Of a stretch of 59,302 nucleotides of DNA, positions 5,473 through 46,900 are shown piece by piece. The number at the start of each line of letters is the position of its first letter. Position 1 is the first letter of the stretch. The notes below the pieces were generated by a model. It made no database searches, had not been told where the DNA came from, and saw nothing but the letters and a program-made list of their open reading frames with translations. Source of the stretch: a virus. The DNA lies in the IMG/VR virus record IMGVR_UViG_3300031416_000008, positions 1 to 59,302 of that record; one strand, 5' to 3'. The position numbers and the translations under genes are program-made.

Positions 5473-5840
5473 AGCGCGAGCCTCAAAGTTTCCATCGCGA
5501 TGTAAAAAATGGTTGCGCAGAGCCATCCAAGGCCAAATGCCGACAGCGAAGCGGCGCGGAGCAAATACCGAGGCTCTTTTTTCACAGGAGCTGGTTCGGG
5601 CTGTGGCTGCTGTTCTGCTTTCTGGTTCCAATGCTCGATCGGCATGACGTTTACCCCACCGCAAATATCGGCGAGGCGCTGCAACCGCACAGACGTGTGG
5701 AACGCACCATCAGTTTTGACCATGTGCCGTACGCAGGCTTCGATGAGCCCTTCCGGGGCTCCGGGTAAAAAGCCGCTTACTTGTGCATCGAACTGATTGA
5801 TTGAAGTGAAAAGGCTGTCCGTAGGTTGAGGCCTGTTCAT
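5469..5840 (-). CDS. Hypothetical protein with C-terminal transmembrane helix
   Basis: ATGA overlaps at both ends. C-terminus LSAFGLGWLCATIFYIAM is hydrophobic. Confidence 0.5.
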   Translation of the reverse strand: MNRPQPTDSLFTSINQFDAQVSGFLPGAPEGLIEACVRHMVKTDGAFHTSVRLQRLADICGGVNVMPIEHWNQKAEQQPQPEPAPVKKEPRYLLRAASLSAFGLGWLCATIFYIAMETLRLAL

Positions 5841-6526
5841 GCTGCGTCCGCCTTCGCAATGATGGCTGGATCAGCTTCGATGCATTCACGCGCACGAAGA
5901 GCGCTACAAATGCCAAGCGTCAGATCACGGCCTGTGGCGTTCCAGCGGAGGGCATTGATCAAAAACTCGCAGTTATTGCGCCTGTCGGCTTGGATATTCA
6001 GGCTGCGGCATAAAGCGAGCAATTCGGGCTTCCAGAGCATCCAAAGCGCTTTTGAGGGCAGGGTCTCTTGCAATGCGAGACGAATTTCCGGCCAACGCGC
6101 ATAACCATCATGCCCGGTAGGCAACATGTTTCGAGCACGTTGCGGATATATCCACGCACCACGCATGTAACGATAATCACCCGGCAATCCCATCAAGTAA
6201 TACACGCCGTCGCGTTCGTGATGCGCTGCGCTTGCGTTGGTGCTGTATTCTTCCGAAAGAAACTTTTCGTGCAGGACGGCTATCGAATGGTGTGCAACAC
6301 CTTTCATCCCCTGCATCTGGTCATGCAACCGATCAAGTTTGTCCTTGGCTGATTTAATTTCAACTGCGATGATTTCAGCGCGGTCAACGGCCAATACATC
6401 AATGCGCGTTCCGCCAAGTGATGTGTTGATTTCGTGAATGATACGGGCGTTCGGACGTTGTTGGCGCAAATATGCCACCACAGCTTCACGGATTTCACCT
6501 TCTGCGGGGGAGCGGTAAGCGGGCAT
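5837..6526 (-). CDS. PD-(D/E)xK nuclease-fold protein (MmcB-like)
   Basis: RIDVLAVDRAEIIAVEIKSAKD contains D...E-x-K. One-nt stop/start overlap (TAATG) with the methyltransferase gene. Confidence 0.6.
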   Translation of the reverse strand: MPAYRSPAEGEIREAVVAYLRQQRPNARIIHEINTSLGGTRIDVLAVDRAEIIAVEIKSAKDKLDRLHDQMQGMKGVAHHSIAVLHEKFLSEEYSTNASAAHHERDGVYYLMGLPGDYRYMRGAWIYPQRARNMLPTGHDGYARWPEIRLALQETLPSKALWMLWKPELLALCRSLNIQADRRNNCEFLINALRWNATGRDLTLGICSALRARECIEADPAIIAKADAA

Positions 6527-7800: not shown

Positions 7801-8279
7801 CGCCCAGCTTCCTGCAGATCGAAAATCGCTTTACGCTGGATCGCTGCGGCCCTGTCGTTCGCGCGGATGCTTGCGACCAGGGCCTTTTGGTCGCTTTGCA
7901 GCTTTGCCATTTCTTCGCGCATGATCGTTTCGCGCTGCTGGTTCGCTTTGTAACGCTCTACCAACCGGGCGCGGTTGTTTTTGACGACAGCCAGCTGACG
8001 CTGTGCAACGACGGCTTCTTGCGCCAAAAATTCCTTTGGAGAAGGCTCCGCTTTGAGCGGTTGAAAAACCTCCTTAATCATCTTCATTGCTTCCTCTGGC
8101 TGGCCAGCGCGCATCTTCGCGTAAGCGTCAGTTGCAACCTGTGTTGCATCTACGGATGGAGTCGACGCACTGTCTTCCGCCAGAGAACCACTCAATGCAG
8201 ATACGAGTTCGCTTTCAAAGGCATCGAAATGTTCAGTGTCGTTTGGGGCGAGCCAATGCGCGGCTGTGCTTGAAGACAT
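7797..8279 (-). CDS. Hypothetical coiled-coil protein (160 aa)
   Basis: AGGAGG SD upstream and ATGA overlap with the methyltransferase gene. Confidence 0.6.
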   Translation of the reverse strand: MSSSTAAHWLAPNDTEHFDAFESELVSALSGSLAEDSASTPSVDATQVATDAYAKMRAGQPEEAMKMIKEVFQPLKAEPSPKEFLAQEAVVAQRQLAVVKNNRARLVERYKANQQRETIMREEMAKLQSDQKALVASIRANDRAAAIQRKAIFDLQEAGR

Positions 8280-8298
8280 GCGGTCCTCCTGAAAGAGA

Positions 8299-8349
8299 AC
8301 CGCCGGTAGTGTGGAGTGTCAAAACGGAGAGGGACACACTACCGGCGGT
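8299..8349 (-). promoter_or_regulatory. Perfect 15-bp stem hairpin between two - strand genes
   Basis: ACCGCCGGTAGTGTG (8299-8313) pairs with CACACTACCGGCGGT (8335-8349), 21-nt loop. On the - strand it is followed by TTCTCTTT, then the SD. Confidence 0.5.
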
Positions 8350-8419
8350 ACGCGGCGACAGAGCGGGGCTCAGGCGGGGGGCGGGGGCTTGGGTAAACCC
8401 GCGCTGTCACAGCATCGGG

Positions 8420-8701
8420 TTATCGGTTGAGTGTCGTAAAGCAGGTATCGAAGCTCGATAGCTCTAAGCATCGGTCCATAGCGGACGGTGCGCTAATCGA
8501 GTTCATGGCCGAGAGGCCGAGAAACAAAATCATTAAGATGAGAGTGACTACAACGTAGCCCATGCGGCGTTCTGTGCCAGCGTGAACTGCAAGTTGCTGC
8601 TCGTACAGTTCGATGAAATCTAACTCAGAATTTTGGGTGCAAGTTCCCGTTGGGCGTCCGCGATTTGACGCCGCCAATCCTCGGTCCATGACCATCTCCA
8701 A
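8420..8701 (-). CDS. Small membrane protein, first gene of the leftward arm
   Basis: One strong TM segment, YVVVTLILMILFLGLSAM. Sits next to the operator region. Confidence 0.45.
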   Translation of the reverse strand: MEMVMDRGLAASNRGRPTGTCTQNSELDFIELYEQQLAVHAGTERRMGYVVVTLILMILFLGLSAMNSISAPSAMDRCLELSSFDTCFTTLNR

Positions 8702-8735
8702 TTGACGATAAGTTCACCAGTTATGGGTTGCACTG

Positions 8736-8787
8736 TATAGGCAATAGACGATAGAATGCAACAAGAAATATCGGCAATAGCCGACAT
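8736..8787. promoter_or_regulatory. Two 20-bp dyad operator-like boxes (A 8736-8755, B 8768-8787)
   Basis: TATAGGCAATAGACGATAGA and ATATCGGCAATAGCCGACAT fit ATATnGGCnnnnGCCnATAT. Centres are 32 bp apart. Box A overlaps a CTATAC -10-like hexamer for leftward transcription. Confidence 0.55.
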
Positions 8788-8906
8788 TTTTTGCAAATCT
8801 GTGTAAACAGAACGTGAACATGTCAGGATGCCTTGATGCGTAATCCCGTAACCGGTACTGGTTAGGATAGGCGGCGTCTGGGGATTATAGGACGGCAGGA
8901 GGCAAT

Positions 8907-9086
8907 ATGTTTTTGAGTATCGACCGAGTAACAGGACAGCACTTAACCGCCGAAAGCGATCCGCAGGGGCTTAGCGATGGAGACGGAGGAGGATTCCGGG
9001 AGCTCGCGCAATTTATTGAAGCGGTGACAAAAATGTCGCCACAAGAAAAGCGCCGAATCGGCGCTCTAATCGACAGTCTGAATTAA
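8907..9086 (+). CDS. Unlisted 59-aa ORF (just below the ORF-track cutoff)
   Basis: AGGAGG lies 6 nt upstream of the ATG. Hand translation: MFLSIDRVTGQHLTAESDPQGLSDGDGGGFRELAQFIEAVTKMSPQEKRRIGALIDSLN. Convergent with the repressor gene. Confidence 0.4.
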   Translation: MFLSIDRVTGQHLTAESDPQGLSDGDGGGFRELAQFIEAVTKMSPQEKRRIGALIDSLN

Positions 9087-9431
9087 TTAATCTTCGTTAT
9101 CAGCTGGGGCGGGGTGCTCTGGCACAATAGCGGATACCATGTCCCGTACGATCTCCCGGCGTTTCGGGTCTAAAGACTGGTATTTAAGGACGAGCTTTTC
9201 AGTTTCTTCGTCCAATTCAAGGCCGAAAACGAGCCACAAAGGGCTTACTTTAAAAGCCGTGGCCAACTCGACGAGTGAATCGATACTCGGTTCCTGCTTC
9301 TTTTGAAGGAGCGAATAGATATACGCGTGGTTCTTCCCCGCCAGTATTGACGCGGACCGCATGGTAAGACCTCGTTTCGCCATCAGCTCTTGAAGGCGTT
9401 GTCGCCACATCGAATTATCCATGCGCGACAT
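9087..9431 (-). CDS. CI-like XRE-family repressor (114 aa, no S24 peptidase domain)
   Basis: HTH GLTMRSASILAGKNHAYIYSLLQKKQEPSIDSLVELATAFKVSPLWL. Flanked on both sides by operator-like boxes. Confidence 0.8.
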   Translation of the reverse strand: MSRMDNSMWRQRLQELMAKRGLTMRSASILAGKNHAYIYSLLQKKQEPSIDSLVELATAFKVSPLWLVFGLELDEETEKLVLKYQSLDPKRREIVRDMVSAIVPEHPAPADNED

Positions 9432-9491
9432 TTAGCAAATATTTGCGGTATTTGTAACTGGAAATATGTTGCTGAATAATAATCGTTTTTT

Positions 9492-9524
9492 GCCGATATT
9501 GTATATATCGGCTATTGCCTATAT
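9492..9524. promoter_or_regulatory. Operator box C (9505-9524, inverted orientation) plus GCCGATAT/ATATCGGC palindrome
   Basis: ATATCGGCTATTGCCTATAT is the reverse complement of the box A/B consensus. Lies in the divergent repressor/rightward intergenic region. Confidence 0.55.
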
Positions 9525-9560
9525 CTTCGCCACATTCCTCAGAACTGGTGAAGGTATCCG

Positions 9561-9743
9561 GTGGCCGCCAAACGTTCATTGACAGCCCAATTGCAAGAGA
9601 TTGACCGGATCATCGGCGAAAGCCGTTCGTCTAAGGATGCCGATTATCGGCGTGAAACACAGGAAAGCATACGCGACACGCTTCGATGGCTTCAAAAGCA
9701 TGAGCCCAAAATCAAAAGCCTTGTCGCAGGGCGCTCACGATGA
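9561..9743 (+). CDS. Hypothetical first gene of the rightward arm (GTG start)
   Basis: GAAGG lies 7 nt upstream of the GTG. ATGA overlap with the next ORF. Confidence 0.4.
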   Translation: MAAKRSLTAQLQEIDRIIGESRSSKDADYRRETQESIRDTLRWLQKHEPKIKSLVAGRSR

Positions 9744-10162
9744 GGCCCGCTCCCCCGATCGAAACCATTCTGCACCGCGTCACATATCACGCTGTTACGC
9801 GGTATGTGCAGCGCATCCTTGGAGTGTCAATTCCGATGGAAAAGGGCACCACAGAGATTATTCGTGCAGCCGTCCACTGTAAGCGCGCCAAAACCACGAT
9901 CGACGATGTGCGGCGGCTGGTGATGATCCCCACGGTAGCGGTTGCGATCGAGAACAAGTTCGCCGCGATCGACACGAAGAACTTCACTGCTGTCATTGAT
10001 CCAGAACAGCAGATCATCGTCACGATCCTTGAACCCCAAACCTACAAACAACGTCACGGAAGGAGAAAGGCCAGCAGCCGCTCAGAAAAACAATGTCACC
10101 GCATCGCCGAACGCGTGGGGATGCAGATCAAAGGTATTCATACAAAAGGTAAAATGAAATGA
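9740..10162 (+). CDS. Hypothetical protein (140 aa)
   Basis: Coupled ORF chain on the + strand. Confidence 0.55.
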   Translation: MRPAPPIETILHRVTYHAVTRYVQRILGVSIPMEKGTTEIIRAAVHCKRAKTTIDDVRRLVMIPTVAVAIENKFAAIDTKNFTAVIDPEQQIIVTILEPQTYKQRHGRRKASSRSEKQCHRIAERVGMQIKGIHTKGKMK

Positions 10163-10434
10163 AGGATCAATCACGCTCGATCGGAACTGAGACGCCATCA
10201 ACGCCGGTTCAGACTGTTCACGATGCATTGAACAAAGCCGAGGAACTGGCTCATACAGTGCAAAAATTCATGGACGAGTTGTTAGGCTACCGAAACGATC
10301 TGTCCGAGGATTCTTCCGGCCCCGCAGAGGAGGGGATATTTCCCCAGCTCGAAAATCACGCATTTCGGGCAAGGCGCAGCGCATTGATTGCGATAGATCG
10401 AATTGCGGCGGCTCGCGGAGAGCTGGCACAATGA
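10159..10434 (+). CDS. Hypothetical protein (91 aa)
   Basis: ATGA overlaps at both ends. Confidence 0.55.
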
Positions 10435-10691
10435 GCGACGATATCACATCAGAAGCCCAGACAATCGCGGTCGGCCAGCTGCGAGCCTTCATTGAGCGCA
10501 TCGAGCGCCTTGAAGAAGAAAAGAAAACAATCGGCGACGATATCAAGGAAGTCTACGCCGAATTGAAGGGCTCCGGTTTCGATAGCTCCGTTGTGCGAAC
10601 CATTATTCGTCTTCGAAAGAAGGAGGATCACGAGCGGCAGGAGGAAGAAGCCATGCTGCAGCTCTATATGGACGCGCTGGGAATGGGCTAA
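10431..10691 (+). CDS. gapR: GapR / DUF2312 (UPF0335) DNA-binding protein
   Basis: [36 protein letters not shown]...IIRLRKK...[15 protein letters not shown] is the family signature. Confidence 0.8.
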
Positions 10692-10696
10692 CCAGC

Positions 10697-10933
10697 ATGA
10701 GTGCGGCGCCAGCTCCGGACATTTGGTTAAACGACACAGTACCGGCCTTTATGGCTGAACACCCCGTCTATTCCGATAATCCGTTGCTGGCGTTTTTGCT
10801 CGACGCGTTGGTGCGAGAAACCGAAGAAACCACACCTGACATATCATTAGACGCCGCTTTGCTGCGCGCCACGCACGATACTCTCGTTAGCCAGGCACGC
10901 GTGCTATTGGCGGCAACGGAGCCTGCAGCATGA
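10697..10933 (+). CDS. Hypothetical protein (78 aa)
   Basis: ORF coupled to the small terminase gene. Confidence 0.5.
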   Translation: MSAAPAPDIWLNDTVPAFMAEHPVYSDNPLLAFLLDALVRETEETTPDISLDAALLRATHDTLVSQARVLLAATEPAA

Positions 10934-11574
10934 CCGCTAAGCGAGCCCCCGCCAAGAAGGCGGCACCAAAACCAAAGCCCGCATCTCCTTCTAAGGCAAA
11001 GCAACACCAGCCTGCAGAGCTCAATCTGCAAATGTCACTCTTTGCTCAGGAATACATGAAGGACATGAATGCGACAAAAGCCGCTATTCGTGCTGGCTAC
11101 AGCGAGAAAGCAGCTCGTCAGCAGGGCAGTCGGTTGCTTGGCTATTACGTGGTGAACGAACGTGTGCAGGAATTATTTGAGGAATCGCAACGCGTTCTCA
11201 AAAAGAATGCAGAACAGTTTCTTACCGAGCTTCTGTCTTTCAACAGCTTCGACATGATTGAAATTTATCAGCCTGGCACCCGTTGTTTCAAGCCGATGGA
11301 AGAATGGCCGAAAATTTTCCGCACAGAGCTTCTGCAGTCCATCAAGATTTTCGAGAAAGACGAAATGGTGATGGGTGAAGATGGGAAAAAGCATAAGGAA
11401 AAAGTCGGTGAAATCGTCGAAGTCAAACTTGTCGATCGTTTGCGTCTGAAAGATTTCATCGGAAAGGCCATCGGAGCGTGGCGAGAAAAGAAAGAGGAAG
11501 AACGAACAGACGATCCAGTGGCCGAGCTTTGGCAGGATATTTCCGGGCGATCTTTTCAGCCGAAGGATGACTGA
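10930..11574 (+). CDS. terS: Terminase small subunit (Terminase_2-like)
   Basis: FAQEYMKDMNATKAAIRAGYSEKAARQQGSRLL motif. Sits immediately upstream of the large subunit. Confidence 0.8.
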   Translation: MTAKRAPAKKAAPKPKPASPSKAKQHQPAELNLQMSLFAQEYMKDMNATKAAIRAGYSEKAARQQGSRLLGYYVVNERVQELFEESQRVLKKNAEQFLTELLSFNSFDMIEIYQPGTRCFKPMEEWPKIFRTELLQSIKIFEKDEMVMGEDGKKHKEKVGEIVEVKLVDRLRLKDFIGKAIGAWREKKEEERTDDPVAELWQDISGRSFQPKDD

Positions 11575-31938: not shown

Positions 31939-31973
31939 GCGCATGACGTGCTAACCGAGCAGGGTACGTCATG
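31939..31973 (+). promoter_or_regulatory. Late leader element 4
   Basis: Box at 31939-31951. CATGACGT (31942-31949) pairs with ACGTCATG (31966-31973). Confidence 0.6.
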
Positions 31974-34900
31974 GCTATTACACTGGATTCAAACGCTGAT
32001 CTTGATGCTTTCTTTGGCTTGGAAAAAGCCGGAAGCAATTCTCCCGCAACAGACAATCGGGAGACTGACGACAAACGTCCGATCCAGTCTGCATCTACAG
32101 AATCCTCGCGTGTGCCCCGTCTCCAACCTATCGGCATAAACTTTGACGCGCCAAAAGCTTCAAATCCGCCCGCCAGCGCGCCCGAAGCTTCAAAGGCTAC
32201 ACAGACTCAAGAAATCCCATCAGCCCCGCAGGCGACCCAGCCAGCGGAAATATCGGGTGTTTCCGCGCGTGATTGGAATGACGCCGTTAATACGATTATC
32301 GCAGAAGCCGGCGGCGACGGCCCTGTCGGTATGCTTGGCGTTGCGAGCACCATTCGCAACCGTGCAAATATTCGAGGCAAGACAATCGGCGATATCGTCC
32401 GCGCCCCAAGCCAGTTTGAAGGCTTTTATGCGCCGGGCCCTAAAGCCGTGGAAGCGCAGAACAATCCGCAGGTGCGCGCAGAAGCCGAGCAGATCCTTCG
32501 TGGTGTTCTAACCGGAGAATTAAGCGATCCGACAAATGGTGCTGACCACTTCCACGCCAACGGTATTAATCCGAAGTGGGCCAGCTCCATGCCGGAAACG
32601 GCGCGAATTGGTGGCCATGTTTTCTACAACTCCAAGCAGGAAGGTGCACCGCGTCAGGTCGCGTCGATGGACCCCGCTATCGGGCTTGATGAGCCGCGCG
32701 GCAATCGTCGCGGTCTTGCGAACCTCGTTCCCGAACAAAAGGAACCGGAAAACACGAAAACCGGCAGCTTGGCGTTCGTCAACCCCGGTCAGGAAAAGAT
32801 CAACCCCGCATTCGCCTCCGTTCTGCAGGACGTTTCCGCTGACATTGGCAAGGGCCTTGTCATCACTTCCGGATACCGATCGCCTACGCATCGGGTGGAA
32901 GCAGCGAAGAAAAAGCCCGGTCAGCATTCACATGGTACAGCTGTCGATATAAGCTTGAAGGGTATGAACGGCCAGCAGCGTTTCGATCTTGTGCAATCGT
33001 TGAAAGCGCGTGGCGTTCGCCGTTTTGGCACCTACTCAAACTCTCCAGATATCATCCACGTCGACATGCTTCCGATGAAGGATTCGAAGGATGGCTTCTG
33101 GTACATGCATAATAAGTCGGTCAATAACATGGGCGGTGCTCCAGATTGGCTAAAAGCAGCGCGCGCAACGCGCGTGAAGCGATATGATGTGCCGCAGGGC
33201 AAGGCTATCGAGGCCGGCGCGGATTTCCGTTTTGATGGCGATCCAGAACCAGTTGCGCAGAAAACACCAGCAACTCCAGAAGTGGAAAGCACTGAGCAGC
33301 CGACCGAAGCTGATCCGATCGACGCGCGCCTCGAAGAACTCAATAAGTCAGAGCCCGGCAAGTACCAGGCAATGACTGAAGACGAATATGCCAAGTGGCG
33401 TGAGGAGTGGGAAGCCAATCAGCCCGGTATTCTACAAGACGTCGCGCGTATGGTCGCCGCTGGGGCTGTCACAGGTACCGCATCAATCATTAAAGGTATT
33501 GGTCGCCTTGATGCAGCCTTCAATGCGAACGTCCTTAATCCACTTTTCGGCACAGAATTTAGCGAAAGCAACGAATACGACGTGCCTGCCGGTTGGGTTG
33601 AGAAGTACGGCGAGGGCATTAAGAAGGGCGTTTCGCAGGCGACCAAAGACGCTATCGAAACCAGTACGCCTGATGGCGATCTATTGGACCCGTCAACTTG
33701 GACGCTCGGTACTAACCCATCGGCAAGGGGCCTTGTTGCCCTAGGGGCTGACGTTTTCGGCTCAATGGTTCCAGTGGTCGCGGCAGCTGTAGCGACCGGC
33801 GGTACGGGCGGATTTATTGCAGGCGGTGCGCAGGGCGCAGGCGGTGCAGAAGATCGGGCCAAGCAGATCATTGATGAGCTCGCAGCAGAGCCCGGCGCGC
33901 TCGAAACTCAGTCTGCTTATTTCCGTGAGCAAATTGCATCCGGAAAATCCCGCGAAGAAGCGATCAAAGCCACTAAGGACGCGGCAGCGAACATTGCGTC
34001 TGTATATGCAGCACCAATTGCGGGTGTTGGTGGCGTACTCACCGGCAAAATTGTTCACCCAGCCACCAATATTCTCGCAAGCAAAGCACTGCCCGCTCGC
34101 ATTGCAGGCCGCGCAGTCGCCGGCGCGTTGGAAGAAGGTTCGCAGGAAGCGCTTGAAACCGTAGGCGCTAACGCTGGCGTCAATCAGGCGATCGGTACTG
34201 ACCTCAACGTCACCGACGGTACATTCGGCGACTTTGTTCTCGGTGCCATGGCGGGCGGCGCTACCGGTGCTGCAGGTGGCGTCACCAGCCGCAGATCAGC
34301 ACCCCAGAGCGAAGCAGCCACGGAAACTCCAGCGGCGGCTCCAGCTTCCGACCCAGTACAGACAACGGCTCCAGAACCACAGGACACACCACAGCGCAAA
34401 GGCCCGCTTTCGCGCGCGTTCGAGGAATCCGCGTCACGTACTGATCTCGAATACGTCGTCAACGATCCAGATATCGATGGTAGCGGGCCCGGCGAAATTC
34501 ACGGTCAGACTGTTCAGATATCGGCCAATCAGGATCGGGTGCCAGCAGGGATGCGCCGCGTCATCGATCAGAGCGGCGTAGAACGCGTCATTGGCGATCG
34601 GGTACTGATGCCTTTGACACAAGCGCAGGAAGCCGGAATCCGTCCAGCCGATCGCACTACTGCGACAAGCGTCCAGTCAGGTAAAGGCGCTCCAACCGTC
34701 GGGTCAACAGTTAATGTTACTTTGCCAGACGGCAGCTCCATTCGCGGCACAGTTGATAGTTACGCCGATGGTGAAGCGGTTATCACTGATGAAGTCGGCG
34801 AAGTGTTTCAGGTTCCGGTTTCGTCTATCGCCGCTCTAGAGGCCGCAGCAGCTGTGAAACCGGGCCAGCTTCCAACCGATGCACTGCCGGAGCGTGATGC

Positions 34901-37900
34901 AGACGCGCAGGACGAGTTGCCAGCGCAACCACCAATGGCTTCCGAAACCACTGTCGAAGAAGACGTTGCGCCCGTCGATCGGCAGAAGAATATTGTTTCC
35001 GCTGAAAACGCGCCCAAGGTTGGCCAGAGCGTTATTGTAAATGCGCCTGGCTTAAAGCGGGTTACCGGCAAGATCGAACAGTACGTTTACGAGGACGAAG
35101 AATACCAGGCTATCGTTCGCGAGAGCGGCGGCATGACAATTCAGGTTCCGATCGAGCATCTGTTTGTCGATTCTACGACCAATAAGCAGGCCGATGCGGA
35201 GGAGTTGCGCAGGAATCCGCCTGTTGATCGTCCTGACATTGACCCCAACGAACCGCGTGTCCGTAAATTTGGAGACAAGGCGGTCCGTCTGCCCGATGAT
35301 GAGTCACAGCGTATATTCGATCTTGGTCAAAACCGGGCGATGGCCAAGCGCCTGCTGGGTACGTCTGAACTTGATAAAGATCGAGCAGCTGTGCCGGCAC
35401 AAAAAGCGCTGGCTGATGAACTTGGTATTTCTTTTGAAGACGCCGGCAAGCTGGCTGATGATTATCGGTACCGCGTCGAAAAAGCCGGTAAGCAGGCACG
35501 ATCGAAACTACCTGTCGAAATGCACTCAGTTAATCCCGTCATGCTCGATCGGATGCGCAAGCGGGTAGAAAGTCAGACAACAGCCGAGCCGGCGCCCGCA
35601 GTCACAGAAGTTTCGGTTGAAGCTGCTGAACCGGTATCGAAAGTCGAAACGCCACAGGTAACGGGCACCGACACAGAGACATGGTACAATTCCATGTCAG
35701 AAACAGATCGTGCCGCCACGCTTGCCAAATCGGGCATTAAGCGCTCGCCGAAAGCACCATTCGATAAGCTGTCGCCGAAAATCCAGCAGACGTTGAATAA
35801 GCAGCGTCAGGTTGAAAGCGAAGCACAGCAAGCCCCGATCGACATTGCGGCCGTACAAGCAGCGACGCATCCGGACAACGACATTGCGGAACCGACGCTC
35901 GCGCAGAAAGAAGCCGGAAATTATGCCAAGGGCCATGTGCGTTTAGGTGGCATGGATTTGTCGATCGAAAATCCAGCGGGCTCCGAACGCAAAGGCGTAG
36001 ATGCCACCGGCAAAGAGTGGTCCACAACGATGCAGGGCCACTACGGCTACATCAAAGGCACCATTGGCCGCGACAAAGACCACATCGACGTTTTTGTTAA
36101 GCCGGGCACCGCTGACGTTTCCGACACAGCGCCGGTTTTCGTGGTTGACCAGAAAAACCCAGACAATGGCCGATTTGACGAACATAAGGTCATGATCGGT
36201 TATGATAGCCAGCAGGAAGCCGAAGCAGCATATTTGGCGAACTATACGCCTGGTTGGAAAGGCATGGGCGACGTTACAGAAACAAGCCTTGCCAACTTCC
36301 GGAAATGGACCAAAGATGGCGACACCACAAAAGCTTTCGCTCCGAAGTGGTTTGGCACGCGAGAAAAGGCAGATGCCTACGTCGCGAAGAACAACCTTTC
36401 AGATACGCACTCTGTCGTAGAAAACGGCAAGCGCTTTGAAGTCCGTCAGGCTTCCGACAATGCTGCACAAACTGCAAAACCGGCGAATAATATTCAAAAT
36501 CGTTCCAACAACGATTTGGAACGCTTGAAAAACGATTACCGCCGCCAAGTTGCCGAGGCTCCTTTCGCTGACGTTTGGGGATCAGATCGCGAGCCCGTTT
36601 ATGACGCACTGTCACAGCTGGCGGAAAAATCGCCGCTAAAAGACAGGGAGATTGTTTACGCGGTACGTGAAAATGCCAGTGATGCGGACCTCTTGAGTGC
36701 AGCTGCTCGGACGTTCGGCGTTGGCGGCGCTGGCGGCAACAAGTACATGGTTGAAACCCGCGAAGGGCCGACTGTCACTGTCACGTTAGAAAAAGATAGT
36801 GGGCCAGAAAAGATTGTCCTCAAGGGCAAAAAGCTGGCTGACACTCTGCGGCGCGAATTTACCCGTACCGTAGAGGAAATGCGTGAAGATGCGATACGCG
36901 CGGGAAAAACGCGCGCATTCATCGACAAGAAAAAGGCGGAACACAGAGAAAAGACTGCGAGCAAAAATAGCAGTGCGTTGGTGGGTGAGCCGCTTCCCAC
37001 GCGCGGTGTTGCGCCCGCCAATATAGGTAGTGACGGCAATACCTACGTCGGAAAGCCCGGCGGTGTTCATTTCGAGATTAAAAGGCCTGACGGCGTGGAA
37101 TGGACCGATATCGGTTTTGTAAATCCATCCGGTCAATTCCTTGATCGCAAACAAGCGTTTGAATGGGTCGAGCAGAATGAACAGCGTGTCCGCCCCTCAG
37201 ACAATATGGACGCATCCCTCGATGCGCTCGATTATCGTGAGCAGGTTCCAGAGCGAGTGCGAAAGTCGGGCAAAAAAAACGCAGAAAAGCTCGACACCCT
37301 AATCGACACTGGTCAGCTGACCGCCGCATCCGATTGGGGCGCTTCCAATAAATTAGTTTCACGCGATCGAGCAGATGAAATACGTAAGAAGCTCCGCGCG
37401 AAACTGAATGGTCAGATAAATTCGGGCATTGATCCGGAAATTCTAGCGCTGGGAACCGAGCTCGCGGCATTCCACATCGAGGCCGGTGCGCGTAAGTTTA
37501 CAGACTTTGCACGCGCTGTTGCTGTAGACATGGACGCAAGCATTGAAAAGCTTCGCCCATTCCTACGGGCGTGGTATAACGGCGCGCGCGACATGATGGA
37601 GGATTCCGGGCTTGATATTTCAGGCACCGATGATGCCAATGCTGTAAAGAGCGCACTCGCAACGCTAAAGGACGTGGACGATGGAAGCCTTTCAAAACTG
37701 GAAACGAGAAGCGGAGCTGCATTGGAAGCAGTTTCAGCCGAACCGTTACAAGGAACTGAAAGCGGGCGGAAAGCTCGATCAGGCGTTGACCGAAGCGGCC
37801 AATCAGACAGCACTGGAAATGAACCAGCTGACGGAAAGCGGCTTCCAGCCGGACGAAGCGTTTCAGATGGTGAGACAGAACTATCTGTTCCCGCCAGAGG

Positions 37901-40900
37901 AAGGCAGCGAAATGAGCGTACCAGAAATGGGCCAGACCTCTTTGAGCGAGCAGATGACAAACGCAGTCCGGAAGGGCAGCAGGACAATGGACCTGTAGGC
38001 GAAAAGCCGCTTTCCGACTCCGTAAATCCCGAGAAACGTGTATCGCCGGACGATTCAGCAGCCACACCTGCACATAATCGTCCGGATGGGTTCACCATTA
38101 CGGATGAAGATGCAATCGGCGCTGGCGGACCAAAAACCAAGTTCCGCAATAACGTTGATGCCATCAAGCTTCTTCGAAAGCTCACAGAAGAAGGTCGGAC
38201 GGCGAGTCACGCAGAACAGAAGGTTCTTGCGAAATGGGTAGGCTGGGGCGGTTTGCAGCAAGCATTCGTGCGTCCGGACGGTTCCAAGGCCAAAGGCTGG
38301 GAAAAAGAAGCTGATAGTCTCAAGGAACTGCTCACGCCCGAAGAATACCGCGCGGCAGAAGCCTCAACCCGCAACGCCCATTACACCGCACCTGAAATCA
38401 CCAAAGCTATTTGGAAGGTTGCGCAGCGGCTTGGTTTCCGTGGTGGTCGCGTGCTTGAGCCTTCCGTTGGTTCAGGTAATTTCCTCGGACTGGCTCCGGG
38501 AGAACTGAAACACCGCGCGCAGTTTACCGGCGCGGAATTAGACCATATTACGGGTGGCATCGCGCAGCAGCTCTATCCGGCAGCTAACATCAAAGCTCCT
38601 GTGGGTTTTCAGGAGTTGCAGATCCCGGACAATTATTTTGAGTTGGCCGTTGGCAATCCGCCATTTGGCAGTGAACGCCTTTACGACGCGCAGCGCAAGG
38701 AAGCTGCGAAATTCTCCATACATAATTACTTCTTTGCAAAATCCGTCGACACATTGAAGCCGGGCGGAATTTTGTCGATGGTAATCACAAACTCATTCCT
38801 TGATGCGGCAAAGTCCGCAGCACGTCGATACATCGCGGAACGTGCCCGGCTCGTCGGTGCAATTCGTCTGCCGAACAACGCCTTCCTTGCGAACGCTGGA
38901 ACGGAAGTCACTACCGATATCGTCGTTCTTCAAAAATACCCAGAAGGCACTGCACAGGCGGACAAGGATTTCTCTTGGGTTGACGTCGGCAATTATCGTG
39001 ACGCGCAAGGGCGCGACACGCCGCTTAATCAGTATTTTGTCAGCAATCCCGATATGATGCTGGGCGACTTCGGCCGCTACGGCACAATGTATGGCCCAGA
39101 GCAGCCCGCGCTTATTTCGCGTAACGGCGATAATCTTTCGTCCCTGCTCGACAAGGCTATTAATTCGTTGCCGGCTGAAATTATGCCGACACGAACGATT
39201 GAGGAAATAACAGAGTCCGCGGTAAAGCGGGAACTCGATCCCGTCGCTGTGCCCGTCGGCTCTTTTGTTACCGACGCGGATGGGAATATTTCGGTGCGAG
39301 CCCCAGACCTGTTGGGGGAAACACGCGTTATCCCGCGTGCTGATATTACCGGTAAAGATAAGCAGCGCATTTCCGGACTTGTGGCGCTTCGCGACATATT
39401 CACCAACTTGCGCCGCGCTCAGATCGATCCGAACAGCACTGACGCTCAGTTGAATGCGCAGCGCCAATCGCTGAACGAAGCCTATGATGCTCTGACGAAA
39501 GAGTTTGGCCCGATAAACAGCGAAATGAACCGCCGGGCATTTCAAGATGATCCAACATGGCCGCAAGTTTCGGCGTTGGAAATTTCCTATGACAAAGGCC
39601 TCACACGTGAAGCCGCTAAAAAGACTGGCGAAACACCACGTAAACCGAGCGCGGTAAAGGCTCCAATATTTGAGCGCCGCACGCAAGAACCATACAGCCG
39701 TCCGCAGACTGCAAACACCGCAAAAGACGCGCTTGCTATTGCTATGTCGGAATCGGGCTTTGTGGACATGGCTCGCGTTCTTGATCTTTACCGCAAGCCT
39801 GTTTCAGAAGTTGTCGCAGAGCTCGGCGATCAAATCTACATGGCACCGGATGGCGGATTTCAAACCGCCGATATTTATCTATCCGGAAATGTGAAACAGA
39901 AGCTCGCCCGCGCCGAAGAAGCAGCAAAGCTTGATCCAGCCTTTGAGCGAAACGTTTTGGCGCTCCGTGACAAAATTCCGGCCGACATTGATCCAGTTGA
40001 TATCGATGTAAAGGCTGGCGCACCTTGGATACCGGGTTCCGATATCGCTGATTTTATCCGCGATACGCTTGAGACAAGTCATGCCAGGGCAATTTATTCC
40101 CGTGGAACGGCTCGTTGGGAGCTAGATGCGGGACGAGCAAGCGACGTTGCACAGGCGAGGTGGGGAACACCTGATGCATCTGCACGTCAGGTTGTTGAAG
40201 CGGCCCTGAATGCGCGCACAATAACAATCAGCCATAAAAATGCAGACGGTTCCGTCACGGTAGACGAAGCCGCGACTGACGCTGCAAATCAGAAGGTGGA
40301 AGCGGTTAAAAACGAGTGGAAACGCTGGATTTGGGACAACGATGCCCGCCGCGAAAAGCTTTCCCGTCTCTACAACGATACGTACAACACCCACGTCGAT
40401 ACCGTCTATGATGGTTCGCATTTGATTTTGCCAGGCAAAGTCAGCGATGACGTTGTTGAATTACGTCCGCATCAGAAATCATTTATCTGGCGCGTTTTGC
40501 AGTCGTCGACCACTCTTGCCGACCATACAGTCGGTGCCGGTAAAACGTTCGCGGCGATCGGTGCGGTTATGGAACTTCGCCGCACCGGGCAGGCAAAAAA
40601 ACCGATGGTCGTCGTGCCTAACCATCTTGTGCAACAGTGGTCAGCTGATTTTATCAAGTTGTATCCGGGCGCAAATATTCTCGCGGCGACCAAGAAAGAT
40701 TTTGAAGCTGGCAACCGGAAGCGTTTCTTTGCGCGCGTCGCAGCAGGTGACTATGACGCCGTTGTGGTTGCACATTCGTCTTTCGGGCTCATCGGTGTTG
40801 ATCCGATGTTTGAGCGCGACTTCCTGCAAATGCAGGTGGCCGATATTGAAGACTCCATTCGCACGCTTGAGGAAGCGGAAGGCAAATCCAGCCGTAGCGT

Positions 40901-43900
40901 AAAGCAAATGGCAAAGCAGCGGGAAACCATTCAGACCCGTATGCAGAAGCTTCTGGATGCTGGAAGCAAAGACACCGGGATGACGTTTGAAGAAATGGGC
41001 GTAGACGCTCTTTTCGTGGACGAAGCCCATGAATTTAAAAATCTCGGTTTCTCAACATCGATGACGCGTGTTGCCGGGCTCGGTAACAAAGACGGCTCGA
41101 AAAAAGCCGCTGACCTGTTCATGAAAATTCAAAGCGTCATGAAGCGCACCGGCGGACGAAATGTCGTGTTCCTGACAGGAACACCGATATCGAACACAAT
41201 GGCCGAGCTCTACACGATGCAGCGCTATCTTGCCTATGATGCGTTGAAAGCGCAGGGCGTGGCGCATTTTGATGCTTGGGCGCGGGTATTCGGCGAAGTC
41301 GTAACAGACTTTGAACTGTCGGCTTCTGGTAAATACAAGCTCACTACGCGTTTCTCGCGCTTTGTGAACATGCCAGAGCTCGTAACGCAGTATCGCGTGT
41401 TTGCAGACACCATCACAAACGATGATATCCGCAGGCAACTTGCCGAGCGCGGTAAAACCCTTCCTCTGCCACGGGTCAAGGGTGACAAGCCTACCGCGAA
41501 CGTCGTTGAACCATCTGAATACCAGACCGACTTTATCGGCAATCCAACCGTGGATGAAAACGGGATCGAGCACTATCCGAGTGGCTCGATTGTCTGGCGC
41601 TCTGAAAATCTGCCTAAGAAGGCGGAGAAGGGCGCGGATAACATGCTCAAAGTCACTTCTGATGCCCGTAAGGCGGCGCTCGATATGCGTCTGATTGATC
41701 CTGAATATCCGGACTTTGCGGGTTCGAAGGTTCACAAAGCCGCAGACAATATCAAAAGCATTTATGACCGCTGGCACAATCAGAAAGGCACCCAGCTGGT
41801 ATTCATCGACCTATCCACCCCAAAAAAGGCGGTGGCCAAGGCACGCGCAGAATTGCTTGAGCTCCAGCGCAAAGCGGATGCCGGCGACGAAGCGGCACAG
41901 ACGAAGCTGGATAACATCAGCCTGGACGAAATTGCAGCGTTGGAATCGTCATTCTCCGTCTACGACGATCTAAAGGCAAAATTGATATCGCGTGGTGTTC
42001 CTGAAAAGGAAATCGCCTTCATTCACGATGCCAATACCGACCTGCAAAAGCAGGAGCTTTTCGGGAAAGTTCGTTCCGGACAGGTTCGTGTGTTGTTCGG
42101 CTCGACGCCAAAGATGGGCGCTGGAACAAACGTTCAGAACCGTCTTGTTGGACTTCATCATCTGGATGCACCGTGGCGCCCAAGCGACCTTGAACAGCGT
42201 GAAGGCCGCATCATCCGTCAAGGCAATGAATTATATGCTCTCGATCCGGACGGTTTCGAGGTTGAAATTCACCGCTACGCCACCAAGCGGACGCTGGACG
42301 CCAAACAGTGGCAGACGATCGAGCAAAAAGCACGTTTCATTGGTCAATTCCGCGCCGGAAATGTGAAAGAGCGCGCCGTAGAGGATATCGGAGGAGAGGC
42401 GGCAAACTCTGCCGAGATGAAAGCTGCAGCTTCTGGCAATCCGCTCATCCTGGAGGAGATGGAGCTCCGCCGCAAGGTGAAGCGTCTCGAAAACGAGAGC
42501 AGGGAACACGAACGCGGGCAACACTCGACGTCTCGCAATATTCGCGAGCTCGAAAATGAGCAGACGGAAATCAACGAGCGTTCCGAGGCGTTGGCACAAG
42601 ACGCAGATGCAGCGAAAAAATACCTTGCTGGTGAGTTTTCTGCCACGATCAATGGAAAGAGTTTCGAGAAGGCTGGCGATGCCGGCGCAGAAATTCTTGA
42701 TGTTGCACGCGATATGATTACCAGTGGCGCAACAAGTCGCGCTGTGGGCTCCGTTGGCCCGTTCCGTGTAACGCTGCAAAAAGGTTTGGCATCCTCTTTC
42801 CAGATCACGCTCAAGGGTGCGCGGGAATACGACATAAGTTTGCCTGATGTCGGTGAGCTAACGCCTGTGGGCGCATTCATGCGCGTGATGACACCTATTA
42901 GAAATCTGCCTGAACGTCCGGCCTTTGATCAGGAACGGCTATCGACGATAGCGAAAACGCTACCACGACTGAAAGGCGAGCTTTCTGAATGGCAAGGCAG
43001 AGCGGAACTCGACGAGACGCGACAGAAGCACAATAATATCCTTGCCGCCTTGCGTCCTAAAAAGAAGGACGCGCCGACCGTTGAAATTGAAAAAGCCGCA
43101 GAACAGCCGAAAGCCTCAATCGTCGATCGCGAACCAGTAGCACGTTTGACAGGCGAAGAAGTTCTGCCTGGATTCACACCAGACAAAGACATGGGCGCAT
43201 TAATTCGGGCCGCGTCACGTTGGTATAGTGAAAACCTGCAAGGCACGACGACAAAAACCCGCGATGGGGTCACGGTTGATTTTATCCAGAAGGGTAGAGG
43301 CAAAACCACGTCGCGATCAAAAGGCGATAAACTTTTGCGCGCTATCCCTGCTATCCGGGATATTATCGAAAAGGGCGAAGTCGTTCATCGAGAAGCGGGT
43401 ACAAAGGCGAACGTCCTCAATCGAGTAATAATTGCAGCGCCCGTTGAACTGGCCGGTGAAACGCTTCATCTGGCTATTTCTCTGCACGAAACAAACGCAA
43501 AAACCTACCAGTATGACTTCACGTTCAACCGTGAGGCATATCAAGATAGTGATCGAGCTTCCGTTGGAAGTCTTGACGGAGAGACGTGGGTAAATCACGA
43601 AGGGCTTGCCACCCGCGAAGGCGCGCTACCTAGCTTAGAAGTGCCGCTGTCCGCCAAGACAGATATTAATCTAGTCGAATGGACGCCAAAAATCAATAAT
43701 TCTGAGTCCGACGCGCTCCGCACGGCATTGCAGCGTGGCGAATTTGGCACAGAGGTAAATCGCCTGCTCGATAATGGCGCGATCGAGATCGGCAATATTT
43801 CCGATGAAAACGTGCAAGCATGGACACGTCCTGACGGCACGATAGTCCTGAATAGTGCCGTTCTAGCGCCACAAAACGCCAACGCTGTGTTGCTCCACGA

Positions 43901-46900
43901 GGCGTTCCATTCGGGCACGAAGCGCCTTATTGGGACGCGCGCGTGGAATGCGCTTATCTCCGATCTTGGCGATATTCGTGATCGATTTGAGCGTTCGACG
44001 GGTAAAGCTCGTCAGTTCTTCGAGCGAGCATCGCAGCGTGTCAAAACGGCCGAAAACCGTACTGGCAAAAAAATGGACGATAGTTTGTCCGCAGAAGAAT
44101 TTGGCGCGTACGCGATTGAGGAATACGAAAACGCTCCCCGCACCATCAGAATGTGGGCCGACAAAATGGTCGGGGCAATGAAGGCTTGGGCTCTCCGTCG
44201 GTTTGGGAAGCAAATTGGTGAAGTCACGCCTGCACAGCTTCGCGCTCTTGCTGTTGCGGCTCTCAAATCTAGCACTACCGAGCCAAATGGCCCGCGCGGC
44301 GGCTCTGACCTCACGACAACCAATGACAAATATTCATTGGTCAAGTCGCCGAAGACAGAAGACGTGCGCAACGCGGTGGATTCCATGAAAGGAAGGCTGA
44401 CCGACCTTACCCCGCAAGCCTTGGCTCTGATCCCGCTCAATTATTTCACCGAGCTCGCACAGAAAGGTCATACGGCTATTGCCGATTACCTGACTGTGAA
44501 AAGGCAGCTCGACTCTTACCGTGGACGTCGGAATGAACAAGCCGATAAGATCGTGCAGCAATGGCGCAAATATAATCGGCTTGGCAAAGAGCGTGCGCAA
44601 GACATGGCCGATATCATGCATGAGGCGACGATTGCTGGATATGACCCGTCGATCGAGAACGACGCAGCTGATATCGCAAAAAATCGCTCCCTGCAGGCGA
44701 AGTATGACGCGTTGCCAGAAGCTGGAAAGCAGCTCTATGACACCGTGCGCAACAGCTATCTCGAACAATCGCGCGAGCTCGATGGCATAATTGTCGATAA
44801 TCTGAAAAAGGTCTTTCAGATAGCGCAGAACAAGGCCGAGCGGAAATACCGTAAGCAGCTTGAACAGCTCTCCAAACAGCGCATGGCCCCAGCCGATCGG
44901 AAAAAAGCCGAAGACGATGCACATGCAGCGTACGAGTCCACGACCATGAAGGCTAAATGGTCGATGAAAGCTCGTCTCACAAAAATGCGCCAGGCGCTCG
45001 AAAGCGACCGCTTGGATGGGCCATATTTCCCGCTTGCTCGCTTTGGCGACTATTTCGTCACAGTGAAAGATATCGACGGGCAGGTGATGCATTTCTCGCT
45101 GCATGAACGCAGTGCCGATCGGGACCGCGAAGCGGCTGATCTTCGCAAGCAGTATCCAAATGCTGATGTGATCGTTGGCATCAAGACAAACAGCGCGGAT
45201 CTTCGACAGGCGATGGACCCACGAGTAATTGCGGATATTCAGGCAATCATCGGTCAATCGAATATCGATAGTGACGTGGGCGCGGAAATGCTCGACCAAA
45301 TCTGGCAGCGGTATTTGCAAACAATGCCTGACATGTCGATCAGAAAGCGGCAAATTCACAGGAAGAAGACTGGCGGCTATACGTCGGACGCGTTGCGGGC
45401 CTACGCGTCTCATATGTTCCATGCCGCCCACCAGATGGGCCGACTTAAATATGGGGTGGAGCTTAATGAGCTCGTTAACACCGCTGCGGAACAATCGCAG
45501 GAAATGGCTAACCCGACGAAAGCGGGTATGCTGTCGAATGAATTGGGCAAACGCCATAAGTGGGTAATGAACCCAACAGGCTCGCGCTTTGCGCAGGCGA
45601 TCAACAGCACTGCATTCGTTTGGTATCTGGCAGCAACGCCCGCAGCCGCCCTTGTGAACCTGTCGCAAACGCCAATGCTGGGTATTCCTATTATGGGCGC
45701 CCGTTTCGGCACGGCCAAAGCTACAGCGGCGCTCTTGCGCGCGTCCGGCGACCTATTCCGGGGCAAGGGCAGCGTTCAGCACAAAAACCTCACAGCTGAT
45801 GAGCAATCAGCGCTTAATGACTTCTACGAGTCGGGCCTGATCGATCGCACACAGTCACACGACCTTGCCGGCGTTGGTGACACCGGTGTGAACTATTCTC
45901 CGTGGCGGGCATCTGTCATGGCGAAGATTTCATACCTCTTCCACAAAGCGGAAGTGATTAATCGCGAAGTCACAGCGCTGGCTGCATACCGTCTGGCGCG
46001 CGATAGCGGTATGCGGACAGGAAAAGCTGTTGAAGTCGCTCACGATCTTACGTGGAGAACGCATTTTGATTACTCGAATAGCAGCCGTCCACGCATCATG
46101 CAGAACGACTTCGCGAAGGTCGCGCTCGTTTTCCGCTCATATTCCGTGAATATGATTTATCGCATCACGCGTGACTTGCACCAATCAATGAAGGCAGAAA
46201 GCCCACAGGCGCGCAAGGAAGCGCTCTACCAGCTTTCCGGGGTATTGGGCATGATGAGCCTCATGAGCGGCGCCACGGGCGTATTTGGCTTCAATGCGGC
46301 TATGATGATCCTTGGTATGTTCTTCGGTGGCGATGACGATCCGTTCGATTTCGAGCAGAAAGTTGCAGCAGCTGTTGTCGATACTCTCGGACCGACAATG
46401 GGCGGCATGGTGCTCAAAGGCCCTCTCGGACATTTGGCTGGGATTGATCTTACCAACCGCATAGGCATGGCCGATATCTGGTTTAGATCGCCCAACCGCG
46501 ACCTGGACGGACAGGACGAGTTTCAATACTGGGTAATGAACTCTCTTGGTGCTTCCGTCAGTATGGCAGGCGATGCTTGGAAGGGTGCGAGCAGCATCCT
46601 GAAAGGCGATATCGCCCGTGGAACTGAATACCTGGTACCGAAGGCCATCCGAGATCCGATGAAGGCTTATCGCTATGGAAGCGAGGGTGTGAAATCGGCT
46701 CTCGGAGACGAAGTGATCCCTGTCGATAACATTTCATGGGGCGACGTGGTGCGTCAGGGCGTTGGCTTTACGCCGGCGAAAGTATCGGAAGCGTGGTCAC
46801 GCTCCAGTGCGCTGAAAAATGCAGAGAGCCGCATTAATGCCAAGCGTCGGCAGCTGATGAATGAATTTGCAACGGCCGTTGAAATGAAAGACGTTGAAAC

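Follow-up and report, generated by a model that had tools for sequence, protein, structure and literature searches.

The DNA analyzed here (the window) is a stretch of 59,302 nucleotides (nt), positions 1 to 59,302 of IMG/VR virus record IMGVR_UViG_3300031416_000008. It carries a giant gene whose product is a DarB-like "polyvalent" protein of the PBC5/PEp14 phage group. Within that gene, in its +1 frame, lies a 105-codon open reading frame (ORF) that shares its bases with a linker in the giant protein. From comparative analysis of the codon usage, start signals, homologues and substitution pattern of the small ORF, we conclude that it is very probably a genuine, separately initiated and functional gene nested inside the larger one. 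We also found that the two frames are both under selection over the same ca. 315 nt.

Layout of the locus

The features discussed below are collected in Table 1. In the Pfam analysis, the giant protein was found to contain a SleB-like cell wall hydrolase (Hydrolase_2, residues 117-219), an M15 peptidase (Peptidase_M15_3, residues 278-365) and an InPase domain (residues 1311-1448), followed in the C-terminal half by an Eco57I-type methyltransferase (residues 2213-2299), a ResIII/SNF2 helicase, Helicase_C, LPD3 and LPD39. An N6-adenine methyltransferase and an SNF2/ResIII helicase are thus combined in one phage polypeptide with effector and LPD domains, as expected of a DarB-like protein, and homologues of the giant protein are annotated as "DarB-like antirestriction" or "PLxRFG domain-containing protein." The linker that overlaps the small ORF connects the N-terminal half of the giant protein with the methyltransferase-helicase half.

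The offset between the two starts (37681 - 31971 = 5710 = 3 x 1903 + 1) places the small ORF in the +1 frame of the giant gene, and its peptide begins MEAFQNWKREAELHWKQFQP.... The stop codon ahead of it leaves 12 nt in which a ribosome could shift into the +1 frame before the nested ATG. An earlier note made from the letters of the window (the original prediction) had described the TAA, the AAGGA, the 8-nt spacer, the ATG, the 105 codons and the peptide, and we reproduced all of these details.

Table 1. Features of the giant gene and the nested ORF (window coordinates)
Feature	Position	Strand	Remarks
Giant host gene, DarB-like polyvalent protein	31971..47099	+	5,042 codons (ORF list, translation, Pfam)
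Last conserved helical domain of the N-terminal half of the giant protein (LNGQINSGIDPEIL...RAWYNGARDMMEDSGLDISG)	37404..37625	+	Giant frame; adjoins the nested gene upstream (translation)
+1-frame TAA stop	37666..37668	+	Four codons before the nested start
Shine-Dalgarno-like AAGGA	37668..37672	+	8-nt spacer to the nested ATG
Putative nested gene, +1 frame	37681..37998	+	105 codons plus TAG (37996-37998); predicted acidic, TnpV-like helical protein
Conserved core of the nested protein, residues 1-75	37681..37905	+	Four predicted helices; ends in the YLFPPEE motif (alignments, AlphaFold2)
Variable tail of the nested protein	37906..37995	+	Predicted disordered; pLDDT below 50 for residues 76-105
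Giant-frame linker (DGSLSKLETRSGAALEAVSAEPLQGTESGRK...AHNRP)	37680..38084	+	Low complexity, Gly/Ser/Arg/Asp/Glu rich; first ca. 106 codons share the bases of the nested gene
Start of the methyltransferase module, giant frame (DGFTITDEDAIGAGGPKTKF...)	38085..38867	+	Eco57I-type Pfam match covers residues 2213-2299

Codon usage of the two frames

A hand count in the original prediction had put third-position G+C at about two-thirds in the +1 frame and about one-third in the annotated frame; over 37681-37935 we obtained 0.66 and 0.34, in agreement with it. For the giant gene as a whole, G+C at codon positions 1, 2 and 3 is 0.625, 0.448 and 0.549. We then scored both frames with a codon-usage log-likelihood model trained on the remainder of the giant gene, scanning all 4,956 segments of 85 codons. 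The +1 frame outscores frame 0 nowhere in the giant gene except in segments starting at 37602-37815, with the maximum at 37680. At that position the +1 frame scores +0.375, which is like true frame-0 sequence (mean, +0.33; standard deviation, 0.10), and frame 0 scores -0.19, about 5 standard deviations under the gene mean.

Elsewhere in the giant gene, 19 further runs of 80 codons or more are open in an alternate frame. All of these consist of 30-46% Arg, Ser, Pro and Cys and have negative codon scores; the nested run contains 16% of these residues and has a codon score of +0.25. The original prediction went further and held that the +1 frame looks more like coding sequence than the annotated one. 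The codon scores support this, but the implied choice between the frames does not hold, since both are coding rather than the +1 frame alone (see below).

Conservation of the small ORF in phages and bacterial genomes

When the 105 residues were searched against GenBank phages with tblastn, 21 records representing 13 phages were matched at 43-80% identity. These include POI1126 (80%), Atu_ph08 (51%), PBC5 and VvAW1 (48%), Pavtok, PEp14 and Stean (47-49%), LASTA, SJM3 and SopranoGao (49%), and Itty13 and Microcystis phage Mwe-JY07 (43%), and the hosts of the matching phages span Ochrobactrum, Agrobacterium, Sinorhizobium, Vibrio, Erwinia, Klebsiella, Pseudomonas and Microcystis. The giant gene is the sole annotated feature beneath every one of these matches, and the nested gene is annotated in none of the 13 phages. 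By annotated coordinates, the match lies in the +1 frame of the giant coding sequence (CDS) in 7 of 9 records (POI1126, Atu_ph08, VvAW1, Pavtok, PEp14, LASTA and Mwe-JY07), and a +1 relation to a long open frame is seen in 9 of 10 GenBank phage sequences. Itty13 (L007, NC_070969, ca. 5575-8817, minus strand) is a special case of annotation: its giant ORF is open over the whole 3.2-kb stretch, yet the two CDS that RefSeq gives instead (5006..8467 and 8507..11419, both "hypothetical protein") lie on the other strand. The giant gene of this G+C-rich genome has probably been annotated on the wrong strand.

In IMG/VR, a pattern scan yielded 57 loci; at all 57 the small ORF is nested, in the +1 frame, within a larger ORF that runs open over 1,150 to more than 2,700 codons of the fetched stretch. 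A corresponding scan of bacterial genomes with an 11-sequence alignment, taking one genome per species, yielded 51 loci, most of them with the same +1 relation; many of these are prophages or plasmid-prophages in which the small ORF is nested in a giant ORF just as in the window. In all, more than 100 related phages, prophages and integrative elements show the same two-frame arrangement. Counted over GenBank phages (13), IMG/VR contigs (57) and bacterial genome loci (ca. 40), identity of the conserved protein ranges from 43 to 80%, and the sequences come from Alpha-, Beta- and Gammaproteobacteria, cyanobacteria, Chlorobi, Myxococcota, Planctomycetes and Verrucomicrobia. With more than 100 independent sequences conserving the peptide, the nested ORF is far beyond what chance would produce. 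The search for homologues of the 105-residue product that the original prediction had proposed found them both in the 13 GenBank phages and among the 729 cluster representatives described below.

As for the window itself, at 59.3 kb it is roughly as large as a complete POI1126-type phage or plasmid-prophage, and a megablast search found no near-identical record of the region among phages. Its closest relatives (L069 and L070) are a 58.7-kb Brucella sp. scaffold, whose nested protein is 88% identical, and a 59-kb Brucella pseudintermedia plasmid. A search of plasmids gave a single match, to a Brucella plasmid-prophage of the same type, and POI1126 has been reported to persist as a plasmid (PMC5492332).

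Start signals of the small ORF

The N terminus of the family profile carries a start codon in 67 of 67 phage loci (66 ATG and 1 GTG). In an alignment of ten sequences, the ATG of the small ORF occupies the same aligned position, opening either MNL(N/Q)xW or MEAFQNW, and is preceded at 6-9 nt by a Shine-Dalgarno-like motif (AAGGA, GGAG, AGGAG, GAGGT or GGGAGG). With such a motif defined as at least 4 nt at a spacing of 4-12 nt, it was found at 85% of 48 lineage starts versus 19.5% of 2,188 other +1-frame ATGs from the same loci (binomial p of ca. 1e-22, uncorrected for phylogeny). Judged by its sequence, then, the ORF has the start signals expected of a nested gene.

Upstream of the start, the +1 frame is Arg/Lys/Pro/Ser-rich junk that is closed by a stop codon. 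Across related loci this stop lies 2-84 codons away (5 codons or fewer in 10 of 47 lineages); in the ten GenBank phage sequences it lies 2-45 codons upstream, and in Pavtok, PEp14 and LASTA, as well as at loci L036, L041, L044 and L061, it is just 2 codons off. No sigma-70-like internal promoter was found in 36900-38400.

Selection on both frames

Substitution phase was followed in sliding segments along three pairs of sequences (window/POI1126, Pavtok/PEp14 and Atu_ph08/PBC5). In the flanks of all three, substitutions fall mainly at the third codon position of the giant gene (e.g., 2, 30 and 3 in the three phases), and from ca. 0 to +300 nt of the small ORF they shift to the third position of the small ORF (e.g., 7, 5 and 17). 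When 17 non-overlapping pairs were pooled, the core showed 163/137/345 substitutions at small-frame positions 1/2/3, so that 53% fall on the third position of the small frame and 21% on that of the giant frame. The pooled downstream flank showed 187/936/261 in the same phase, in which position 2 is the giant third position, and here 68% fall on the latter.

Amino acid conservation gave the same picture. Over the 75-residue core, mean pairwise identity among 47 lineages is 47% in the small frame, and the same bases give 33% in the giant frame and 33.5% in the unused third frame; the neighboring methyltransferase N terminus has a comparable identity of 45%. Nevertheless, in every one of the 48 lineages below 85% identity, the giant frame stays open over the full length of the small ORF. 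When the synonymous codons of the small ORF were redrawn by the codon usage of each locus, the median probability of such openness was 0.018 (0.004 for the window), and the giant frame is therefore subject to a separate selection against stop codons. Its translation across the overlap contains, family-wide, 20% Gly, 14% Ala, 10% Arg, 8.5% Pro and 8% Ser, with Phe, Trp, Tyr, Met and Ile near 0, and is by composition a disordered linker.

The small ORF thus lies inside a host CDS, its protein is under purifying selection, and the host frame is kept open over it, which is the pattern of a nested overlapping gene. The original prediction had asked which of the two frames homologues conserve. The small frame is indeed the one whose residues are conserved, but the giant frame is maintained as well.

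The nested protein and its family

An exhaustive HMMER search of 1.84 billion cluster representatives found 729 proteins at an E value of ≤1e-3, 168 of them at ≤1e-10. Most matches are 100-130 residues long and align from residue 1, and the family members whose names were examined are "hypothetical protein" throughout. (A 1,426-residue repeat protein on the list, P0095, in which a short low-complexity stretch was matched 12 times, was ignored.) Residues W7, A11, H14, W15, P20, G30, L32, L36, A39, A40, T43, G54, A60, R65 and L69 are invariant or nearly so. At its end, the tail carries the motif ...KGSRTMDL, which the alphaproteobacterial relatives share. AlphaFold2, run with 41 sequences, predicted helices at residues 2-18, 20-29, 32-53 and 57-68, with a predicted local distance difference test score (pLDDT) of 82-91 over residues 1-70, and a disordered tail. 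The family is acidic, with a median isoelectric point of 4.75 and median net charges of -4 for the core and -5.5 for the tail; the isoelectric point of the window protein is 4.9.

The Pfam family TnpV (PF14198) matches the window protein at 13.1 bits (E = 0.097), under its gathering cutoff of 27 bits. TnpV matches at E values of ≤1 were obtained for 24 of 40 relatives (best, 4.6e-5), over profile positions ca. 25-72 and in all examined cases below the gathering score, and one homologue carries a precomputed PF14198 assignment. These values fit a distant relative of TnpV rather than a member of that family. The size of the nested protein fits that of a TnpV-type protein (ca. 110-120 residues), and some of its relatives are free-standing genes in integrase or insertion sequence (IS) islands, with the window copy being nested in a phage gene. 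The original prediction had suggested a resemblance to small helical modules found near methylase-helicase proteins of mobile elements. This was borne out in part, by the subthreshold TnpV matches and by a position that is always just upstream of the methyltransferase-helicase module. Neither NCBIfam nor Pfam at curated thresholds gave a family for the nested protein, and a profile search of PDB sequences returned nothing at an E value of ≤10.

Occurrence outside phage giant genes

At ca. 17 loci in Verrucomicrobia, a tyrosine integrase is followed by an ORF of 1,711-1,752 codons that has ResIII/SNF2 domains and the same methyltransferase N-terminal motif as the window. This large ORF starts ca. 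70 nt (ca. 25 codons) upstream of the small ORF, and its first ca. 110 codons form a Gly/Pro/Arg-rich leader that overlaps the small ORF in the same +1 relation. Even where the N-terminal half of the phage giants is absent, then, the overlap occurs, and it is tied to the methyltransferase-helicase module. A short LDLF-type motif was also seen at the extreme N terminus of the large ORF at these loci (L101-L119; e.g., L101, 3703-10066).

Other relatives are free-standing small genes in mobile and defense islands. These adjoin Xre-type regulators, an MmeI/Eco57I-type methyltransferase pair (L094) or type I restriction genes (L095 and L124/L125), and some lie near IS elements or integrases; an ORF pair near one free-standing copy was read by eye as McrBC-like. 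A subset of the free-standing relatives carries a C-terminal transmembrane fusion (P0009, P0010, P0030, P0032 and P0087; loci L067, 3790-4893, and L089, 4974-5762), which hints at a membrane-linked or defense-related role for some members. At L067 the transmembrane-fused copy stands right after an integrase, in a small island with AlpA; at L089 its neighbors are an Xre regulator and ORFs that look McrBC-like on inspection by eye.

Objections and alternative explanations

Several observations weigh against our interpretation of the small ORF as a nested gene with a role alongside the methyltransferase-helicase module. The support for it is sequence evidence throughout, and the association with the module is positional. 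The locus counts given above are not phylogenetically independent, so the p values are indicative only. Most of the Verrucomicrobia members are without an obvious Shine-Dalgarno-like motif. No tblastn match was obtained in the DarB-like giants of either Bcep22-type phages or Parlo, and the nested gene is therefore not essential to all DarB-like proteins; it marks one large clade rather than all DarB-like giants. A Foldseek comparison of two AlphaFold2 models with PDB and BFVD returned nothing significant except the fused ORF of PBC5 itself. Finally, PBC5 and a few metagenome ORFs (P0038, P0050 and P0140) have the upstream giant domain and the small ORF in one frame, so that a fused product may sometimes be made.

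These in-frame cases deserve a closer look. In PBC5 (L003, NC_003324, ca. 26155-26520), the N-terminal half of the giant runs into the small ORF and ends at its stop codon. Compared with Atu_ph08, PBC5 has a 1-nt deletion ca. 55 nt before the nested ATG (GAGGTCG-AGC versus GAGGTCGAAGC), and it is an early-2000s sequence record. P0140 (L068; ENA k141_1408799, 40-582 and 2390-3043) lies in a decayed remnant in a G+C-rich bacterium, with an IS21 IstB-like gene nearby and a truncated methyltransferase, in which the small ORF is intact and in frame with an upstream LNTGFDPE...WY domain. P0038 lies on a 2.4-kb contig broken into four ORFs. The helical domain that precedes the small ORF in the window also precedes it in PBC5, P0038 and P0140, and the methyltransferase N-terminal motif that follows it in the window recurs after it in the L068 remnant, as it does in the Verrucomicrobia elements. 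The internal Met is retained in all of the in-frame fusions. In our reading, these fusions reflect errors in sequencing, decay or variants that are tolerated. No other evidence leaves room for a fused or frameshifted product, and none of the fusions lends frameshifting positive support. In the stretch of PBC5 that was viewed, the methyltransferase-helicase part is unannotated. The fused PBC5 record is also the reason why PHROG 938 ("endolysin") carries the small protein at its C terminus. The single strong PHROGs match (phrog_938, positions 2084-2183 of 2185) is accordingly an artifact of that fused ORF and gives no clue to function.

If the fusions were taken at face value, the small ORF might be an alternative C terminus of the giant protein: programmed +1 (or -2) frameshifting near 37669-37690 would then yield a truncated protein of ca. 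2,010 residues ending in the TnpV-like domain. The four in-frame cases hard-wire exactly this fusion by a 1-nt difference, so the fused architecture can exist, and a Shine-Dalgarno-like element before the shift site is a known stimulator of frameshifting in prfB and dnaX. However, the model does not require the start codon that all 67 phage loci have kept, and with a +1 stop codon 2-5 codons before the ATG in many lineages, hardly any space is left for a shift site. A conserved slippery sequence is lacking there; in the 45 nt before the ATG of 10 phages, the Shine-Dalgarno-like motif is the sole conserved element, which is not the picture of a prfB-type shift site. Moreover, free-standing homologues begin at the same Met, the large ORF of the Verrucomicrobia begins just ca. 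25 codons upstream, and the in-frame cases themselves are an old record, a decayed locus and a fragmented 2.4-kb contig. We consider programmed frameshifting improbable. The same evidence gives no support to an internal start combined with recoding, one of the options in the original prediction, in that recoding is unnecessary and there is no conserved shift site.

An internally started ORF might also be translated for its regulatory effect, on ribosome traffic or mRNA structure, with the peptide itself being functionless. The position of the ORF would suit such a role: in the giant gene it falls right where the two halves meet, and in Verrucomicrobia it falls at the 5' end of the large gene. 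Also on this side is the finding that the RNA around the nested start is no more structured than shuffled controls (z = +0.99). A functionless peptide would not be expected to show the 47% mean identity across phyla and the near-invariant residues described above, nor a confidently predicted helical core, and the free-standing and transmembrane-fused homologues are not tied to any large gene. This makes a purely regulatory ORF very unlikely.

The original prediction had also raised the possibility that an ancestral in-frame domain was displaced by two compensating indels, either real or arising from sequencing. The low complexity and atypical codons of the giant frame are what a displaced domain would leave behind, but we give this explanation almost no credence. 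The same out-of-frame state is found in ca. 100 independently sequenced phages, contigs and bacterial genomes of at least five phyla, each with the conserved start codon; the substitutions track the +1 codon phase; and among the relatives, none was found with the domain in frame with both flanks. Nor can we credit a chance open frame thrown up by the Gly/Arg-rich composition of the linker, with an antisense ORF as the real second gene: long alternate-frame and antisense ORFs are indeed common in this 53% G+C giant gene, but the +1 ORF is the sole alternate frame with genuine codon usage and homologues, and its amino acid conservation and substitution phase rule out the coincidence that the original prediction had allowed for. 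The two antisense candidates (37412..38185, 257 codons, and 37498..38073, 191 codons; both minus strand) were rejected as by-products of composition, being open in 10-24 of 48 lineages with junk translations. Across the region, the three antisense frames are open in just 24, 13 and 10 of the 48 lineages, and their translations are Ser/Pro/Arg rich.

How the nested gene may work and arise

If the small ORF is a nested gene, as we think, ribosomes would start independently at its Shine-Dalgarno-like site and ATG on the mRNA of the giant gene and make an acidic protein of ca. 105 residues and ca. 12 kDa, whose core has four helices and whose tail is disordered. Ribosomes in the giant frame would read the same bases one position earlier and produce a flexible Gly/Arg/Ala/Pro/Ser-rich linker, which may act as a spacer between the N-terminal hydrolase/virion modules and the methyltransferase-helicase modules. 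Selection acts on the small frame through the sequence of its protein and on the giant frame mainly through the avoidance of stop codons.

Of the two frames, the small one is probably the older, with the giant linker overprinted onto it, because the small protein has free-standing relatives, normal codon usage and a folded domain, whereas the giant frame is disordered and has atypical codons. An overprinted gene was among the options of the original prediction; the overlapping gene it envisaged appears to be genuine, but the direction is probably the reverse, with the giant linker laid over an older small gene. In the Verrucomicrobia elements, moreover, the overlap of the small gene is confined to the first ca. 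110 codons of a methyltransferase-helicase gene of 1,700 residues. The phage giant gene thus seems to have been assembled by reading through the small gene in a second frame.

What the small protein does is a matter for more tentative proposals. One is that it works with the adjacent methyltransferase-helicase, perhaps as an accessory subunit, as a chaperone or packaging adaptor, or as a co-acting anti-restriction factor; nesting would keep the small gene linked to, and cotranscribed with, its partner. We regard this as possible because the gene occupies a constant site just upstream of the module in three kinds of element, because the two would be cotranscribed, and because these phages are reported to lack DarA-type accessory genes (PMC6630229). 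A bolder and likewise doubtful proposal joins origin and function: the giants would have been built by reading through the small gene, and the small protein would be an obligatory cis-encoded partner, possibly a substitute for DarA (a chaperone, packaging adaptor or inhibitor) in phages that lack it.

Relation to known systems

Among known arrangements, the lambda Rz/Rz1 pair is close in form. There, too, a small gene lies wholly inside a larger one, on the same strand and in the +1 frame, with its own start signals; the two are inherited as a unit, and both products are made from one mRNA. Embedded spanin gene pairs also occur in related phages (PMC9144972, PMC6606913). The pairs differ in that Rz1 is a lipoprotein that binds the product of its host gene, and both the Rz and Rz1 frames are structured and functional, whereas the window pairs the embedded frame with a disordered linker of a 5,042-codon multidomain gene, and its embedded protein would be cytoplasmic, acidic and apparently encoded by the older frame.

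The likeness to TnpV, which is carried by transposons such as Tn4451 and by conjugative elements of Firmicutes, lies in size, in carriage by mobile elements and in the helical pattern W...HW/YL..P..Y..L...G.L..L...A.... However, the nested family has its own C-terminal YLFPPEE motif and acidic tail, and TnpV genes are free-standing and offer no transferable function.

A functional analogy may be drawn with the Dar system of phage P1. P1 DarB is packaged in the virion and protects incoming DNA from restriction. As described in PMC9144972, its packaging requires the accessory proteins DarA, Hdf, DdrA, DdrB and Ulx (Piya et al. 2017). PBC5-like and Bcep22-like phages are without a DarA homologue (PMC6630229); an unrecognized accessory gene would fill this known gap. 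In the Bcep22-like phage JC1, the DarB-like homologue has been reported to be virion associated (PMC9144972); that group is without the nested ORF by tblastn, so the published virion proteomics of JC1 has no bearing on the nested gene. The nested protein resembles the P1 accessory proteins in being encoded with a methyltransferase-helicase; virion packaging and the need for accessory proteins are features of P1. In P1, however, the genes stand apart and are not nested, and the analogy is a speculative one about function.

Overprinting in which one frame is intrinsically disordered is a recognized pattern in viruses (PMC8227390, PMC6195259, bioRxiv 10.1101/229690), and the window fits it in having an ordered protein in one frame and a disordered segment with atypical codons, the younger frame, in the other. 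Classic overprinting creates a new small protein inside an old gene, whereas here the small gene seems older and the new frame bridges two large coding regions. In the literature covered on these phages, on DarB-like/PLxRFG proteins, on polyvalent proteins and on overlapping genes (Gill et al. 2011 excepted), we found no mention of the nested gene. Nested +1 genes and overprinting with a disordered frame were thus already known; what is new is a deeply conserved and unannotated gene in the linker of a giant gene, with a probable direction of overprinting that is unusual.

Significance

As to annotation, the records of all 13 GenBank phages with this apparently functional gene omit it, as do those of many prophages. 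Standard gene callers discard nested ORFs, and the gene has accordingly been called just where contigs are short or the large gene is interrupted. Two knock-on errors were noted, the PHROG 938 "endolysin" and the strand of the Itty13 giant gene. For evolution, the locus offers a clean and deeply conserved case of dual coding in bacterial viruses, with one frame folded and the other disordered, and if a large gene did overprint a small one, this would be an unusual way of fusing modules into a 15-kb gene.

For the biology of these phages, the DarB-like giants occupy about a quarter of the genome and are presumed anti-restriction weapons. A small protein that is locked to the methyltransferase-helicase in both the phages and the Verrucomicrobia elements is an obvious candidate for an accessory factor. 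Should the read-through origin and the obligatory partnership both prove true, the locus would add a new way of fusing genes, and a widespread anti-restriction system would gain a new component.

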